The position numbers and the translations under genes are program-made. The notes under the pieces are model-generated. The model saw only the letters and a list, made by a program, of their open reading frames with translations. It was not told where the DNA came from and did no database searches. Of a stretch of 33,489 bases of DNA, positions 1-22,329 are shown one piece after another. Location of the stretch: positions 1 to 33,489 of IMG/VR virus record IMGVR_UViG_3300037313_000454; one strand, given 5' to 3'. Position 1 is the stretch's first letter; each line of letters begins with the position of its first letter. Source of the DNA: a virus (taxonomy: Duplodnaviria > Heunggongvirae > Uroviricota > Caudoviricetes).

Positions 1-370
1 GGTAGACACTTATCCGATAGCTGTTTCTGTGCAGGTCAGGGACTCTTAGTTGCGTCCACGAAGGATAGTGGGTACTAAACACATTCCCCCCTTATGGTGG
101 CCGTTCCCGTTCGTGCGCCGTTTTAATCCACAGATGGGATACCGTAGGTAGTTGCTCCTTAGACAGACGGAGGGTTCCCTATGGCACAGTAGCTTAACCA
201 TTCATACACAGGTCAGCAGACTCATAGCGTAGCCATGAGAGTCTCGTAAGAGACTGGTCTATATGCACTTCCGCGACCATCCGGGAAGAGGACACTTGTC
301 GCGTGTGCCTATGTCCTAAGACATAGGTTGCATGAGCCGTAAGGCTCGGAATCAGTATGTGATAACTGAC
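1..370 (-). ncRNA. Putative large structured non-coding RNA (may continue beyond the window edge)
   Basis: No credible ORF. Hairpins at 221-239, 240-255, 308-327, 334-347 and 351-370. A G-U wobble closes the 221-239 stem only on the minus strand. A leftward promoter puts +1 at 370. Confidence 0.5.
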
Positions 371-376
371 GCGCTA

Positions 377-406
377 AAGGTAGCACGAAAGCGCGGGATT
401 TGTCAA
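377..406 (-). promoter_or_regulatory. sigma70-type promoter, weak -10
   Basis: TTGACA (406-401), 18 nt, TACCTT with an upstream TG. Same geometry as the promoter at 511-539. Confidence 0.45.
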
Positions 407-504
407 GGGGATTTTACAAGCATCGCGCACGGTCATCCCGTGCGACGCGCTTACCATCCCGCGCCGTGCCACCCGTAAGGGCAGCGTCAGTAACGCTCAC
501 TGAC
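391..504 (-). ncRNA. Putative short structured RNA or 5' part of the left-end RNA
   Basis: Starts with GUCAGU...ACUGAC hairpin, then GCUGCCC-UUAC-GGGUGGC (two G-U pairs on the minus strand), a 7-bp hairpin at 426-444, and a 9-bp inverted repeat 456-464/391-399. Confidence 0.4.
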
Positions 505-510
505 AATCCC

Positions 511-539
511 ATTATGCCGGAAAATCAGATTCTTGTCAA
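511..539 (-). promoter_or_regulatory. sigma70-type promoter
   Basis: TTGACA (539-534), 17 nt, CATAAT (516-511). Confidence 0.7.
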
Positions 540-569
540 GGGGTTTAAGAATCAATCACTTACAAGCCC

Positions 570-593: not shown

Positions 594-684
594 TTACTAC
601 TTCGTCAATATACTAATTCGATATTGGCAAAGTAGTAAACTCCCCTGTGTATCATACAGACTACACAGGGGATAGGTGTTTACT
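594..684. repeat. Two large imperfect inverted repeats (cruciform or terminator-like)
   Basis: TTACTACTT 594-602 / AAGTAGTAA 630-638; TCCCCTGTGT 641-650 / ACACAGGGGA 663-672; AGTAAAC 634-640 / GTTTACT 678-684. Confidence 0.7.
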
Positions 685-1411
685 GACTTACCTTTTCGTA
701 AGCCTTACCGCGTTTGACCTCAGAGGCATAGGCCATAGGCTTTACTTGCTCGATAGTGGCGGGTCGATTCTTTGCCACTTCTCGCGCATTGAGTACTCGT
801 TTTGCGGCCCGTGTCACTCGCGCTTTGCCTGCCTTACTACCGTCATTGGCTAGCATGGCATTTTCTAGCAGCGTCTCTGCCGATGCTATCGCGCTAGGTG
901 CATGAGTCGATTGTGTACCGACTTGGAACATCGGGACGTTAGTTTCTAGACGTTCGCGGACTGTACCTCTGAGAGTGTGATCTGCATTGCGCACGTCTCT
1001 CATGCGGTAAGTATCCCGATACCGTCCCGTAATTGTCACACCCTTTGGAACTATTTTGTAACTGCCCTTGCGAGTCCGCACTTTCTTACCTCTTGAACCT
1101 GCATCGGATTCGACAAGGTTATGCATAACGCTAATCTTGCCGTGAGTTTCGCCGATGCTAACGAATCGCGCATCGTTCCAAGCTTCTTTACGCTTGAATG
1201 ACTTGCGCTCAGAGAACAGTCCAGCCGCGTCTAGCATCGGTTTGAGTTGTGTGTAGCTCATACCATCTTGCATCTGCTTGATTGCCGTGTAAGCAGTTTC
1301 ACGCGTTGCAATCAGGCGTTGACGTGCGATTAAGTCAGTCAGTTGTGCATTGCTCAGTTGCGCGTTGATTGTCTTTACTACTTGCCGAAGTTGCGTTTTC
1401 GTCATGTTCAT
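680..1411 (-). CDS. Basic hypothetical protein (243 aa), probable early gene
   Basis: Long ORF. Start placed at MNMTKTQ because AAAGGAG lies 5 nt upstream. Confidence 0.8.
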   Translation of the reverse strand: MNMTKTQLRQVVKTINAQLSNAQLTDLIARQRLIATRETAYTAIKQMQDGMSYTQLKPMLDAAGLFSERKSFKRKEAWNDARFVSIGETHGKISVMHNLVESDAGSRGKKVRTRKGSYKIVPKGVTITGRYRDTYRMRDVRNADHTLRGTVRERLETNVPMFQVGTQSTHAPSAIASAETLLENAMLANDGSKAGKARVTRAAKRVLNAREVAKNRPATIEQVKPMAYASEVKRGKAYEKVSQ

Positions 1412-1479
1412 ATTCGCTCCTTTGTGCGATTGGTTTGTGTTGAGGGTTTTTGTTGATCTGCTGTTCTGCATAGTGTGCA

Positions 1480-1923
1480 TTAGCTGCATACCGTCTCCAT
1501 CTGCGCGAAGTACATCTCCCGTTCCCTTGCCTCTGCTGGAGTCTCATACACGTCGATGCAAACGATGTGCTTATGGTCACAGTAAGCAAGTATTCCTGCC
1601 CGTTTGCCTGATGCCGTGTTGGTCATGCGGCAGTCACTAACTCTGACTTTCGTACCGTGGCACATAGGGCAATCATCCGCCCGGTACTGTTTCACTTCCC
1701 AACGTTCCCCCTTCTTCTGACAAGTCGGTTTGATACGCATAGCACGATTGACCATGGCCCGTTCTAGCGCGTCGATGCTCCTAGCAGTCCAGTCGGAATC
1801 GTCTGCCAGGTGATCTGCACTTTCGTCTACATCGGCGTCTAGGGTGTACATCGGGTCGACCGTCCGAAGTGTTGTGTTGTTGTCTCTGCTGTTGTCGAAC
1901 ATCATGCTTTCCAGTGTGTACAT
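1480..1923 (-). CDS. Hypothetical protein (147 aa) with acidic N-terminus and CPMCHG motif
   Basis: ORF with AAAGGA RBS and its own promoter at 1980-2007. Confidence 0.8.
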   Translation of the reverse strand: MYTLESMMFDNSRDNNTTLRTVDPMYTLDADVDESADHLADDSDWTARSIDALERAMVNRAMRIKPTCQKKGERWEVKQYRADDCPMCHGTKVRVSDCRMTNTASGKRAGILAYCDHKHIVCIDVYETPAEAREREMYFAQMETVCS

Positions 1924-1979
1924 ACTGTTGTCATCCTTTGTGTGTAGTCAGTCAGGCCATCGGCCCGACTGCTGTATCT

Positions 1980-2007
1980 ATTCTAGCTATCAGTATGTAT
2001 GTGTCAA
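1980..2007 (-). promoter_or_regulatory. sigma70-type promoter
   Basis: TTGACA, 16 nt, TAGAAT. The leader begins with a 10-bp hairpin. Confidence 0.65.
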
Positions 2008-2528
2008 ATATCACTAGACAATAACTCATACAATACAAATGACTTAACACTAATAAACTATCTGCTTTGTGTCGATCTGTAGTGTATCCATAGTCTATGG
2101 TCAGAGTGTGTCAGGGATGACACGGATTCAATGTGTTTAGGCTGTTGACCTTGTCGATAACGTACTAACTTCGTTATGTACATAGTGGTACACAGCTAAA
2201 TCGTTGAAAACACTGGGCTAACATGGTATGGCGCAGTGCGACTTGGACTGTCTACGTAGGTAGCCACGACCATTTTTTGTTATTTTCATCGTTGTCGAGG
2301 CATTTACTAAGCCTTTTATTATGTTTTGGATACAGTTTGCCTGCACATATGCAGTGCAGTGGAATTCCATGTGTGTGCACAAAGCTTCCGCAAAGTGGTA
2401 TTTTGATGCACAATAATGGTATTTTATTGTCAAGTGAATAGAGACACGTAGCCCTTATTTTCTATATTTTTCAGTGATTTACAGCGTTTGTAGAGGGATT
2501 TATAGCGTGTCGTACAGGGGTGGGCATG

Positions 2529-2584
2529 AAAAAAGGCTTCCAAGCCCTGTTTTCGACCTAAATCGTACACAGAGTTGGAAGCCT
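2529..2584 (-). terminator. Intrinsic terminator, possibly bidirectional
   Basis: AGGCTTCCAA/TTGGAAGCCT 10-bp stem with an inner stem, followed by a U6 tract on the minus strand. Confidence 0.75.
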
Positions 2585-2672
2585 GTTTTGGAGCGGTTCT
2601 CCGCTAAATTACATGAGGTTTCGTGGGACTTAGATGCACCCCTGCCCTAAGACCTTTCTACTCCCCCAGTGT
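2529..2672 (-). ncRNA. Putative ~145-nt small RNA
   Basis: Bounded by the promoter at 2679-2707 and the terminator above. The only ATG is immediately followed by TAA. Contains several stems. Confidence 0.5.
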
Positions 2673-2678
2673 GTAGAG

Positions 2679-2707
2679 AGGATAGCATGGGTGTGTCGCC
2701 ATGTCAA
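2679..2707 (-). promoter_or_regulatory. sigma70-type promoter
   Basis: TTGACA, 17 nt, TATCCT with an extended -10 TG. Confidence 0.7.
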
Positions 2708-2708
2708 G

Positions 2709-2819
2709 CTACTTTTGGAGGGGGATGGTATGGCCGCAGTGGACACAGAGAAGTCGGTTGCCGCTCTGTACCATCGGGATGACGAAACGGCATTTGGGGC
2801 AGTAGGTGGCTCGTTTCAT
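2709..2819 (-). CDS. Zinc-ribbon mini-protein (36 aa)
   Basis: MKRATYCPKC...CVHCG; ATGA overlap with the upstream gene; AGGAAGG RBS. Confidence 0.7.
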   Translation of the reverse strand: MKRATYCPKCRFVIPMVQSGNRLLCVHCGHTIPLQK

Positions 2820-3106
2820 GCGACCTTCCTGTGTTCGCGGAACTCTTGATGGAGGCGGGTTATGGCTTTGACGAGGACAGGTCGAGGGATTATATGACCG
2901 TTGCGTTCGTAGAAGGTGTTCACCGAGCGACGGGTCAGTTCCTCCCATGCACCCCGGTCAACGAGGTCGGCACAGGTCGGACAGGCTGCCCAATTTCCTG
3001 CGCTTATTTGCTCTACAATGACATTGGAGAAGGGTGCGGGGGCGGTGAAATCCGCCGTTGGATAGGACTTTACGACGTTGGAGTCGGAGCAGAAATCACA
3101 GAGCAT
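2816..3106 (-). CDS. Hypothetical metal-binding protein (96 aa)
   Basis: CDFC and CPTC pairs; protein-like composition. Confidence 0.8.
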   Translation of the reverse strand: MLCDFCSDSNVVKSYPTADFTAPAPFSNVIVEQISAGNWAACPTCADLVDRGAWEELTRRSVNTFYERNGHIIPRPVLVKAITRLHQEFREHRKVA

Positions 3107-3112
3107 AGCAGT

Positions 3113-3181
3113 TAAAAACCAAGGGATGGCTCAAGCTCCTAGGGGAACTACTCGAACCATCCCTCACACAAAGGACAACTG
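3113..3181 (-). ncRNA. Putative ~70-nt trans-acting sRNA with an anti-SD seed
   Basis: Promoter at 3188-3216, single-stranded UCCUUUGUGUG (3175-3165), long G-U-containing hairpin 3164-3122, U5 tract 3118-3114. Confidence 0.55.
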
Positions 3182-3187
3182 AAAACA

Positions 3188-3216
3188 ACTCTACTACAAC
3201 ACCACAATCTTGTCAA
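3188..3216 (-). promoter_or_regulatory. sigma70-type promoter
   Basis: TTGACA (overlaps the stop codon of 3213-3398), 17 nt, TAGAGT. Confidence 0.65.
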
Positions 3217-3398
3217 GCGGCGGCTGCAAAAATCATGGTGGTTGGTGAAGCTTTGCACAGTTTCACGTGTGCCATCTCCCATTGACGGCAGTGGGCGTCA
3301 TTGTCGCAGATGCAGGAAGCCCCACATACGTCGCAGATGTCGAGGATTTTTCCATCGGCCAGTAACTCACGGGTGAATCCAGTGTTCAGCTTAGTCAT
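3213..3398 (-). CDS. Cys/His-rich small protein (61 aa) ending in AAAA
   Basis: GGAG RBS before MTKLNTG; CDVC and CICDNDAHC motifs. Confidence 0.75.
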   Translation of the reverse strand: MTKLNTGFTRELLADGKILDICDVCGASCICDNDAHCRQWEMAHVKLCKASPTTMIFAAAA

Positions 3399-5950: not shown

Positions 5951-5987
5951 TAAAAATAAGGGCCAGCCCCCGATAGAACTGGCCCTT
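5951..5987 (-). terminator. Intrinsic terminator
   Basis: 12-bp stem AAGGGCCAGTTC/GGGCTGGCCCTT followed by ATTTTTAT. Confidence 0.8.
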
Positions 5988-6010
5988 TCAACGAAAGGAG
6001 ACAACAAGTG

Positions 6011-17467: not shown

Positions 17468-19381
17468 ATGGCAACAAAATTCTACTTACGCGATACGGTA
17501 TCTAGCGTTAATCCCGGCTCCGATGATGAGCGCGTACTAGATAGAGCAGCCGGGGCTGGTGTTGTTGCTTACGTAAAGAATACCCTCACTGGTGCGGTCA
17601 CTCCACCCACCACTGCAACACAGTTCACTAAAATTGCTGGTGGTACTAACATCATCTGGATTAGTGAGCCTGTAAATGCTGTAACTATTTCAGGTACGGT
17701 CACGTTCAACTTGTGGGCATTTGAATCCGCTGCACAAGCGAACGCGACCGTTACCGCTGAATTACTACGGTGTAGTTCGACAGGTGCGGTTCTTTCAGTT
17801 ATTGCGGCATGTGTATTAAACCGTACTGAAATTGGTACGTCTGCTGCTGTACAGAACTTCACACAGACTCCTACGTCTACCGCACTTTCGACAGGCGATA
17901 GACTCGGAGTGCGCGTCTATATTGACGACGGTAACGCTGTAACTATGGCTTCTGGCCGTACCGTTACCTTAGATATAGAAGGCGGCACTACTGGCTCTGA
18001 CGGAGATTCCTACGTACAGGTAACTGAAACTGTTACTAATGTGTACGCGTTATCAAACTCGCATACGGTTACTACAGGGTATTCTCTGACCCCGGCTAAG
18101 TTAACGTCTGCGTCTATTTCATTAGGCGCTACACTTGCGGCATTGTTTGCAGGCGTTATACCGTCTCCCGCTTTTAACTCGCTTGCCTTTGAACCTACAG
18201 CGTTCTTCGGTGTAGCAGATGGTGGGGGTGGTACAACCTACACCGGAGATGTAACCTTCTCGATTACAGGCGGCTTCTCTGATGTAGTGTCACTTACACG
18301 CCAAGGAGATTTCGCCGCCAGTGTAACTACAGGATTCAGTGATGCACAAAGCCTAATTACGACCGGGTCAATTACCCTGTCTGTCACGGCTGGATTCTCA
18401 CTACTAACACAATTGTTAGCTGTCGCTGCCTTTACCCAAGGCACTACGGTTACCTTTAGTTCCGTTGGTGGAAGTCTATACGCAGCCTCAGTAACTTTCT
18501 CTGAGACGAGCGGATTTTCAACTTCCCACACACTGGGCGTTAACGTGTCTATTCCGCTAACGATTACGGTAACTATATCTGAATCGGCCTTGATGACGGC
18601 TGTTGCTGCTGCGACTGCTGCGGTCACGGTCGGTTATCTGGTTACGGGTGTTAAGACCACAAGCGGGTCAATCACTCTTGCTGAAACTGGCGGCTTTAGC
18701 GCAGCGGTTACAAAAACCGTTGCCGAGCTTATCAGCCTTGCAGTGACGCCGTCTATCGCTGAGACTCCCACGCTTCAAGCAGTTGGTAGCATTACGTTGG
18801 CTGAGAGTACGGCGTTCCAAGTATTCCAAGGCAACTTGGTTACGGGAGCTATCTCGCTAGCGGCGACTATGGGTGTCAGTACATCCACACAGCTTCTAGC
18901 TTCCGCTCTACTTAGCATCGGACTAACGGCTGGGTACAGCTTAAGCACACGGCTTTCTGCCGCTGCTCAAGCAAACGTTACAGCCACGCTGGGATTGACT
19001 CCAACTTCGACTGGTATCCTTAAGGCGTCTACCACAATCGCGGTAACGCCGGATATACAGACAGTTGGAAAATTGGTTCAGAACGCCTTGATTTCTCTGG
19101 GTGTATCTACCAGTTTATCTGCCGCTGTAACCCTGATAATCACGCAGGCAATGTCCTTGGGCGCAACCCTTGGTATTGCTGATAGCAGCTTGGTATTTGC
19201 TTTTCAAGAAGCTGCATACTCTGCGGATTCCGCTGAGGCAGTTCGTACACTGGTCGCACAGACTGTGGAAGCCATCGAGAAATTGGTGGCAAACAGCACT
19301 GATAACGAACTTACACTTGGTGATTTGTCTACCGAAGTGATTGAGAAACTATTGGCAGCTTCAACCGAGGTAAATCCTTAA
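17468..19381 (+). CDS. Ser/Thr/Ala-rich fibre-like protein with 20-aa repeats
   Basis: 637 aa; globular N-terminal ~190 aa then 16 consecutive 20-aa repeats. Confidence 0.8.
   Translation: MATKFYLRDTVSSVNPGSDDERVLDRAAGAGVVAYVKNTLTGAVTPPTTATQFTKIAGGTNIIWISEPVNAVTISGTVTFNLWAFESAAQANATVTAELLRCSSTGAVLSVIAACVLNRTEIGTSAAVQNFTQTPTSTALSTGDRLGVRVYIDDGNAVTMASGRTVTLDIEGGTTGSDGDSYVQVTETVTNVYALSNSHTVTTGYSLTPAKLTSASISLGATLAALFAGVIPSPAFNSLAFEPTAFFGVADGGGGTTYTGDVTFSITGGFSDVVSLTRQGDFAASVTTGFSDAQSLITTGSITLSVTAGFSLLTQLLAVAAFTQGTTVTFSSVGGSLYAASVTFSETSGFSTSHTLGVNVSIPLTITVTISESALMTAVAAATAAVTVGYLVTGVKTTSGSITLAETGGFSAAVTKTVAELISLAVTPSIAETPTLQAVGSITLAESTAFQVFQGNLVTGAISLAATMGVSTSTQLLASALLSIGLTAGYSLSTRLSAAAQANVTATLGLTPTSTGILKASTTIAVTPDIQTVGKLVQNALISLGVSTSLSAAVTLIITQAMSLGATLGIADSSLVFAFQEAAYSADSAEAVRTLVAQTVEAIEKLVANSTDNELTLGDLSTEVIEKLLAASTEVNP
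18245..19204 (+). repeat. 16 x 60-nt degenerate coding repeat
   Basis: Exact 20-aa period, consensus roughly GSITLAxTxGFSxxxxLxxx (e.g. GSITLSVTAGFS, GSITLAETGGFS, GSITLAESTAFQ). Confidence 0.85.
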
Positions 19382-20721: not shown

Positions 20722-22329
20722 ATGGCACTTAGTACACAACTTGAATTCCCTAATCCGTCATATGCGGACGCAGGTACACACACGCTGACGGAAGCTGAAA
20801 AAGCTGAGATTAGGCGGCTGAGAAGTACATGCTCCTTGTATGACCTTTACAGACCTGACTGGGAGTTTAACCTATCGGCATACGAAGGTGGTTCTCAGTT
20901 TATCAATCAGGACAATATATTTAAACATGCCCGTGAACATGACGAGGATTATAAAGACCGTCTGAAACGCGCTCACTATATGAATTACTGTGAGCCGTTG
21001 GTGGAGTTCTTCTCGGACTTCATCTTCGCGGAAACGATTGATAGACACGGCGGCAACAATGCCGATTTCTATACCGAGTTTATCAGCGACGTTAACCGTA
21101 AGGGTGAGTCGATTACCGAGTTCATGAAAGAAGTTTGCTCGGACGACCAGATTTACGGTTTGGTGTATGTGCTAGTGGATTCTCCGGCAGTACCAGAAGG
21201 CCAGAGACTCACTCGCGCACAAGAAAAAGCATTAAAGATTAGACCCTACTGGATTCTGGTCAAGCCGCAGGATGTGCTTGATTGGGTGGTGGACGAGTTC
21301 GACCACTTTACGTACTGGAAGCGATTCCAGCTTATTGAGGATATGTCTACAGGTTCAAGACGCACTCTAGAGAAGTATACAGAGTGGACGCCTCTGGCTA
21401 TTAAGATTAGCCTCATCGACGTAAGCAACCCACAGAAGCCTAGGCTGCTACCCGCGACCATCATCGGTAACAAAATTGGTGAAGTCCCGGTTGTACCGAT
21501 TCGGTATAAACGCAGCAAGCGTTACAAGGAGATGGGCGAGGCTTTCCTGAAAGACCTAGCCATGCAGAATCGTGAGGTTATGAACCTGACGAGTCTTCTG
21601 CAAGAGTTCTTGTACCGCCAGTGCTTCAATATCCTAGCCGTTCAGGTAGATACACAGCTACCGACACAGGAACAGTCCGAGGGTGAAATCGGTACTGCCA
21701 ACATGCTGCACTACCCCAAAGGGGCAGAAGCGCCTGCATATATCTCACCGTCTAGCGACCCCGCTGACAAGATACATGAGGAACGGCAGACCATCGTAAA
21801 CGAGATGTACAAACGCGCTGCACAGGACACAGTCAACGAACTGTTCAATGGTGTGAAGCGTAGCGGATTCTCTCAGGCCCAGTCGTTCAGTACCACGGTG
21901 CCGCGTATCGCGTCCCGCGCTGAGACACTGGAAAAGGCTGAGAACCGCCTGATGGACTTGACCATGAAGTACATGGGCAAGACTTGGGATGGCCGCGTCA
22001 AGTACAAAGACCGTTACGAGTTAACAAATATTACTGACGCTTTATCGCAGCTTACTCAACTGTTCACGCAGTTGCAGATGCCTTCCGAAACGTTCGTCAA
22101 GACCGAGCTTAAACGCATGGTCAAAGAGTTCGACGGTAAGATTCCGGCTGACATCCTCTTGAAGATTGAGGCCGAGATTGACGCGATGAAGTTCAGCGAG
22201 TGGCAAGAGACTATGAAGACCGCTTTGATTGGTGCACCTAAGACCAATGATGGCGCGAATGGTTCTGCCACCCGCAAACCCACTACAACCGCTGAGGCTA
22301 AGTCCGAGGCGACAAAAGGAAAGGGATAA
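20722..22329 (+). CDS. Portal protein
   Basis: 535 aa, helical, AYEGG...DYKDRLKRA...NY start typical of portals; precedes scaffold and capsid genes. Confidence 0.85.
   Translation: MALSTQLEFPNPSYADAGTHTLTEAEKAEIRRLRSTCSLYDLYRPDWEFNLSAYEGGSQFINQDNIFKHAREHDEDYKDRLKRAHYMNYCEPLVEFFSDFIFAETIDRHGGNNADFYTEFISDVNRKGESITEFMKEVCSDDQIYGLVYVLVDSPAVPEGQRLTRAQEKALKIRPYWILVKPQDVLDWVVDEFDHFTYWKRFQLIEDMSTGSRRTLEKYTEWTPLAIKISLIDVSNPQKPRLLPATIIGNKIGEVPVVPIRYKRSKRYKEMGEAFLKDLAMQNREVMNLTSLLQEFLYRQCFNILAVQVDTQLPTQEQSEGEIGTANMLHYPKGAEAPAYISPSSDPADKIHEERQTIVNEMYKRAAQDTVNELFNGVKRSGFSQAQSFSTTVPRIASRAETLEKAENRLMDLTMKYMGKTWDGRVKYKDRYELTNITDALSQLTQLFTQLQMPSETFVKTELKRMVKEFDGKIPADILLKIEAEIDAMKFSEWQETMKTALIGAPKTNDGANGSATRKPTTTAEAKSEATKGKG

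Follow-up and report, generated by a model that had tools for sequence, protein, structure and literature searches.

A candidate leader-derived small RNA of a soil phage, predicted to pair over the ribosome binding sites of two probable early genes

Small RNAs (sRNAs) of bacteria such as GcvB and RybB carry unpaired G/U-rich 5' seeds that pair imperfectly over the C/A-rich leaders and Shine-Dalgarno (SD) sequences of several targets, and they end in a 3' terminator with a U tail. Sar RNA of phage P22 is transcribed opposite its target, to which it is fully complementary. According to a recent review, Sar is 68-69 nt long and blocks the ribosome binding site (RBS) of the phage gene ant (PMC12197685). 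Phages P1 and P7 encode the c4 antisense RNA, whose length is about 70-80 nt and whose target is a phage mRNA, bound in trans by short pairing partly over the RBS; c4 has three stem-loops with two pairing loops, is processed by RNase P and serves lysogeny (PMC5320573; PMC12197685). StxS of the Shiga-toxin phages is a short RNA whose transcription stops soon after a phage promoter that also drives downstream genes, and it represses a phage transcript by pairing; it comes from the lambdoid PR'-tR' late leader with Q antitermination, is RNase E-processed and Hfq-bound, and activates host rpoS (PMC7547250). According to the relevant sections of the review, the phage sRNAs that have been tested mostly have host mRNA targets, and otherwise act on genes of the phage, either for lysogeny control or in cis; these sections name no tested trans RNA of a lytic phage directed against its own early genes (PMC12197685). 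Our literature search likewise found no tested case in which an integrase-less phage directs an RNA in trans at early genes of its own.

The DNA studied here (the window, 33,489 nt) covers positions 1 to 33489 in the record of an uncultured phage from soil, which is complete at 97.5 kb and whose ends overlap by 127 bp. The closest isolated-phage matches of its DNA polymerase are those of Tunturi 4 (35%) and Tunturi 3 (30%), phages of Tunturiibacter (PMC11924767), and with Tunturi 4 it shares the gene order polymerase, dUTPase, RNase H, small genes and non-coding gap, which makes a host among the Acidobacteriota likely. Neither a tyrosine integrase nor a serine recombinase was found in the phage genome, and no Hfq is encoded in it. 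An AT-rich non-coding gap occupies positions 2010-2520 of the window. Since several long related contigs start or stop in the matching gap, the physical genome ends probably lie near this position. Within the corresponding gap of Tunturi 4 (L199:21800-22150) a CA-repeat tract and a GT-repeat tract face each other.

The first genes past the gap are two genes that occur clade-wide and lie behind a promoter of their own. In the following they are named by their start positions, 1923 and 1411:

1980-2007, minus strand: promoter of both genes, 11/12 match to the consensus.
1480-1923, minus strand: gene for a 147-aa protein with no assigned function; homologs in the same place in L030 and L032, weaker ones in L028 and L026.
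680-1411, minus strand: gene for a 243-aa basic protein with no assigned function and a conserved helical N-terminal part, present throughout the clade.

It is reasonable to regard both as early genes, as the initial annotation of this locus did, because they have their own strong promoter and are situated directly past the non-coding gap in which the contigs of relatives begin or end. The same annotation considered both products possibly toxic. We found no support for this description: Pfam, PHROGs, Atlas and low-confidence models (pLDDT ~60) gave no family or fold assignment for either of them; both are charged, and no match to a toxin family or fold or to an antirepressor family was obtained for either. 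The idea of an RNA-based timer fares no better, since the promoter of the two genes and that of the unit described below both look like ordinary host sigma-70 promoters; a delay could thus come about only via RNA accumulation or genome position. One phage is represented by two assemblies, L025 and L026. Between L025:7790-7990 and L026:1-1060 a difference of about 900 bp at a short microhomology takes out the first two genes together with the early promoter, and it reflects either a deletion variant or a chimeric join. In L029 (2890-3630) a GGAGCGGA-type motif is present in many copies across the early region, both early leaders included.

Also on the minus strand, the initial annotation had described a promoter-to-terminator unit of about 70 nt. 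All its coordinates hold, and the elements follow one another in the expected order, although the U tract is short:

3216-3211 and 3193-3188, minus strand: sigma-70-type promoter with TTGACA, a 17-nt spacer and TAGAGT, 10/12 match to the consensus.
3165-3180, minus strand: unpaired, G/U-rich 5' seed of 15-16 nt containing UCCUU as its anti-SD core; transcription is predicted to begin at about 3180.
3164-3122, minus strand: long terminator-like hairpin with G-U pairs, fold -29 kcal/mol, z = -4.7 against 200 shuffles.
3118-3114, minus strand: tail of five U, 1-3 nt past the stem and followed after 7 nt by the ATG at 3106.
2816-3106, minus strand: gene for a 96-aa Cys-rich protein directly behind the unit, without an SD sequence, start intact.

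The predicted RNA is 67-68 nt long. Its 5' tract has the anatomy of a seed, as had been proposed, being unpaired ahead of the hairpin and accessible (opening energy 1.8 kcal/mol). The hairpin is biased towards the minus strand (-29.2, compared with -16.5 on the plus strand), which is favoured by the G-U pairs, and a simple terminator scan made no call at the five-U tract. Contigs from other runs match the seed, the hairpin and both target leaders with 0 differing bases (X4, 2974-3185 and 1683-2299; X6, 1401-1551), which excludes an assembly error. Rfam gave no match in the window at E values up to 1, a tRNA scan returned nothing, an exact search of viral and genome contigs for the seed-hairpin junction had no match, and neither had a distant blastn comparison with sequenced phages. 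A plus-strand reading, with the hairpin and an RBS-like motif as a divergent gene or decoy, was rejected on account of the missing promoter, the lack of a start codon at usable spacing and the weaker fold.

The position of the unit as the 5' leader of gene 3106-2816 had been overlooked. The start of this gene is intact, since a 68% identical homolog starts at the identical place; for the same reason we rejected the idea of a gene with a decayed 5' end, to which an in-frame 9-codon ORF inside the hairpin might have pointed. Orthologs of the 96-aa gene in L031 and L029 occupy the same place; in each a promoter immediately precedes the gene, and the short leader between them lacks the hairpin. 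Because the promoter is kept at that spot, the promoter at 3216 is most simply read as the gene's own and the unit as its 5' leader. A stricter version of this reading, which we hold to be possible but somewhat unlikely, is that the unit would be a mere leader with a terminator or attenuator hairpin holding the 96-aa gene at a low level, its match to the early leaders being a chance product of a generic anti-SD core and the C/A-rich nature of these leaders. The orthologs and the short distance between U tract and start codon speak for it, as does the neighboring cassette, in which a 61-aa Cys-rich ORF (3398-3213; promoter and leader at 3457-3398, minus strand) likewise has a structured leader, with the SD hidden in a stem (z -3.8). 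However, an attenuator needs no unpaired G/U tract of 15 nt, and in the read-through fold the seed does not pair with the start of the 96-aa gene. The -35 box of the unit overlaps the stop codon of ORF 3398-3213, and further upstream lies a gene for a 32-aa Lys-rich peptide with a strong SD (3715-3617, minus strand); like peptides are found in the same place at L031:16763 and L032:5437.

Two segments of the early region are predicted to pair with the seed:

1930-1944, minus strand: main predicted target, in the leader of gene 1923 (-21 to -7, covering the SD), 15 contiguous pairs.
1418-1429, minus strand: second predicted target, in the leader of gene 1411 (-18 to -7, over the SD), 12 pairs including 1 G-U.

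For gene 1923, 11 of 11 paired positions had been reported, extendable across a 3-nt bulge. The complementarity holds and is in fact longer, with 15 contiguous pairs between 3179-3165 and 1930-1944 (13 Watson-Crick and 2 G-U), and the bulge is unneeded. The pairing to gene 1411 with one G-U was borne out, and so was the location of both sites over the SD. The leader of gene 1411 forms a 4-bp hairpin that exposes the SD in a loop of 8 nt; opening the target is calculated to take 4.5 kcal/mol here and 1.4 kcal/mol in the leader of gene 1923, and the joint folds gain about 17 and 21 kcal/mol, respectively. A third candidate, outside the window, had escaped notice although it pairs as well as the leader of gene 1411: the leader of a gene for a 555-aa protein with an amidoligase domain (genome position 80565), in which 80582-80568 (L197) pairs with the seed over 15 nt, with 4 G-U, across the SD. 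Among 213 predicted leaders of the phage, that of gene 1923 gives the best helix (-20.8), followed by 80565 (-18.3), the start at 20722 and 1411 (-17.2), with a mean of -4.8. The start at +20722, within a short gap between genes, is doubtful and probably spurious.

These values also bear on the reading that the unit encodes a true sRNA that would act as a general anti-SD regulator of host mRNAs or of many phage leaders with AAGGA, the two early genes being incidental or partial targets. That the distant third leader scores like that of gene 1411 fits with this, and known phage trans sRNAs such as PreS, VpdS and StxS target host mRNAs (PMC12197685, PMC7547250). Most AAGGA leaders of the phage, in contrast, pair poorly (mean -4.8 versus -20.8), so that the seed is selective among the phage genes, and we consider a general regulator quite improbable.

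The initial annotation had called an 11-mer match by itself common in 33 kb and had rested its case on the location at both RBSs and in the seed. Shuffling of the seed supports a non-random complementarity. In shuffles that retained the UCCUU anti-SD core, a best match as good as the observed one has P = 0.005-0.007, and an additional second strong match lowers this to between 0.0001 (helix model) and about 0.0025 (duplex model, 1/400). A 9-mer common to the seed and the two leaders has exactly 3 copies in the 97-kb genome; 0.3 copies are expected by chance in the window, and 0 of 100 shuffles reach 3. The best of 22 other promoter-proximal 17-mers testable in trans scores -16.8, compared with -20.8 for the seed. 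The match was chosen post hoc among many windows, a point in favor of a plain leader with a chance match; when corrected for the about 25 promoters per genome only, and not for the windows scanned, P rises to about 0.15 for the single match and to 0.003-0.06 for the joint pattern. After this correction a single match is unremarkable, while the joint pattern stays unlikely by chance. Against the plain-leader explanation stands the fact that the whole unpaired segment is taken up by the 15 pairs and that two further SD-centred matches accompany them, a combination rare in the core-keeping shuffles. Complementarity of the seed to the translation initiation regions of distant mRNAs is thus both accessible and above chance.

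Instead of an RNA-RNA contact, the 9-mer might be an element of the DNA, such as an operator, an end-processing or packaging motif or the relic of a small inverted duplication, set around the gap in opposite orientations. The heptamer CACAAAG occurs five times in 1300-3300 (about 0.5 expected), with the minus copies to the left and the plus copies to the right of about 2200, and in the unit the 9-mer lies at +6 to +14 of the promoter, the usual position of an operator. Two of the copies, on the other hand, are exactly on SD sequences, and the three differences between seed and leaders all preserve G-U pairs. Moreover, nine related loci show no enrichment of CACAAAG in the corresponding region, and no longer duplication was detected. 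We regard a DNA element as very improbable.

For comparison, related loci were collected via the polymerase and the 243-aa protein. The unit is not conserved: no equivalent was found at the compared loci of L025/L026, L029, L031, L032, L191 and L192, relatives with a polymerase 57-70% identical, nor did any of the relatives' loci compared show an exposed seed close to a promoter with a match to early leaders of the same phage. The contig of the 94% relative L193 stops short of the locus. Searches of viral and genome contigs with the 243-aa, 147-aa and 96-aa proteins found no close relatives, and a metagenome search with the polymerase yielded mainly distant enzymes. In L031 and L026 the leaders of the 243-aa orthologs contain a similar C/A-rich AAGGA motif that pairs with the seed at -17.8 and -16.8, respectively, and the motif can therefore occur without a visible seed, as would be expected of a chance match in a plain leader. 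Either the leader motif predates the seed, or these two phages may carry a seed elsewhere in the genome. A promoter-proximal tract in L031 (17692-17760, weak candidate at 17735) is, within 22 kb, the segment that best matches the early leader of this phage (-17.3), and it appears to be hairpin-bound.

Other non-coding elements were seen in this clade. A second, structured promoter-to-terminator unit of about 148 nt without an ORF (window 2707-2525, minus strand, z -4.15) lies at the edge of the probable genome-end gap, and near the gap of two relatives (L191:15457-15527, L199:19283-19352) a promoter is followed by 25-35 unpaired A/C-rich bases, a hairpin and a U tail, with no anti-SD in the unpaired part. 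On the minus strand of window 1-540, promoters at 539 and 406 precede non-coding DNA that is rich in hairpins and has no Rfam match. About 155 nt of it recur at 72% identity in L027 and L031, and L025 and L026 share a short match. A conserved, apparently structured non-coding stretch is found behind a promoter among small genes at L025:4774-5000 and L192:15657-15900.

A genome-wide scan for unpaired anti-SD cores ahead of terminators yielded only four units, at 39840, 32177 (weak), 6001 and 3175. The third of these is laid out like the unit at 3180 and had been overlooked:

5951-6010, minus strand: second anti-SD tract plus terminator in the 3' UTR of an HTH operon, kept in seven relatives.

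Its anti-SD core UCUCC lies 8-15 nt ahead of the terminator. The module occupies the end of the HTH operon at L193:2557, L031:13759, L032:4209, L191:13090, L192:13740 and L025:3018 and lies 2 kb behind the HTH gene at L115:14474, so that eight phages have it, the present one included. It is better conserved than the unit at 3180 and is probably a 3' UTR-derived regulator. Its seed has no significant best target (P = 0.76) and in the computation acts as a generic anti-SD, which lends some plausibility to a general regulator also at 3180. The L032 variant of the module has its top pairing, among 22 leaders, with the one that corresponds to the 1923 leader in L032 itself (-20.6), which is only suggestive because a leader of another phage pairs equally well (-21.2). 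The outer stem, the tail and the motifs GUUGUC and CUUU are common to the 6010 and 3180 units, and the stem shows three compensatory pairs. A covariance model trained without the 3180 unit ranks this unit first among the non-training matches in 41 kb, with a weak score of 12.8 bits (E 0.36), and a permutation test of sequence likeness is non-significant (P = 0.16); a common origin is possible.

Taken together, the computed features leave us evenly balanced on whether the unit is a lineage-specific, leader-derived trans-acting sRNA limiting the first two early proteins. The 10/12 promoter and the strong hairpin would give such an RNA its own promoter and terminator, but there are only five U and the promoter is possibly that of the downstream gene; against the sRNA stand the lack of an equivalent in the relatives compared, the early-leader motif in L031 and L026 where no seed is visible, a downstream gene that explains the promoter, and the short U tail. 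In its favor count the second anti-SD tract ahead of a terminator that eight phages of the clade keep and the first, if weak, rank of the 3180 unit under the covariance model of that tract. We infer transcription, termination, pairing in the cell and repression as follows. Host sigma-70 polymerase would start at about 3180 and mostly halt at the hairpin and U tract, and the halted transcript would be a free RNA of 67-68 nt. Its single-stranded 5' end would pair over the SD of gene 1923 (15 bp) and of gene 1411 (12 bp), with the amidoligase gene leader at 80565 as a possible further partner, and this computed pairing would block ribosome loading, by analogy with bacterial sRNAs and c4. Build-up of the RNA would then cap the output of both proteins encoded first in the early region, whereas the 96-aa gene would be expressed at a low level through transcripts that read past the hairpin. 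With the physical genome ends in the 2010-2520 gap, the RNA would be encoded at the opposite end from its targets, and a delay is conceivable, though speculative. A wider scenario, which we rate as unlikely, is that this clade of probable Acidobacteriota phages runs a small kit of anti-SD-plus-terminator RNAs on its own early translation; a copy of the 6010-5951 module would have landed downstream of a cassette promoter close to the far end of the genome and acquired the first two leaders as new targets, and in this phage without integrase the newborn trans sRNA would shut them after full entry of the DNA.

Should the trans-acting sRNA prove true, it would be a compact test case (68 nt, two leaders, an E. 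coli reporter) from a probable Acidobacteriota phage and may show the birth of a trans-acting sRNA, a value limited by the non-conservation of the unit. Like GcvB and RybB it has an unpaired seed, pairing to C/A-rich leaders and SD sequences, several candidate targets and a 3' hairpin with a U tail; unlike them it is phage-encoded and without a counterpart in the relatives compared. With Sar it has in common the size of 68-69 nt and the RBS of a phage gene as (here predicted) target, whereas it differs from cis antisense RNAs such as Sar and OOP in being encoded on the targets' own strand, 1.2-1.7 kb away, with pairing of 12-15 nt. Type I antitoxin RNAs act on small, usually hydrophobic toxins, while the present targets are charged proteins of 147 and 243 aa with no toxin match. 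The likeness to c4 lies in phage encoding, a similar size and a place in the 5' part of a longer transcript, and the predicted RNA would, like c4, have a phage target in trans with RBS occlusion. Yet the unit consists of one hairpin and one linear 5' seed and has no Rfam match, and in contrast to c4 the genome lacks a detectable integrase or recombinase and the targets have no antirepressor family match. The resemblance to StxS is one of anatomy, a predicted short terminated transcript at the promoter of a downstream gene, here with the ATG 7 nt past the U tract and with promoter and gene kept in the orthologs; there is no sequence match, and the Q, RNase E, Hfq and rpoS features are those of StxS. 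By analogy, the unit would work like c4 and arise like StxS, while belonging to neither family.
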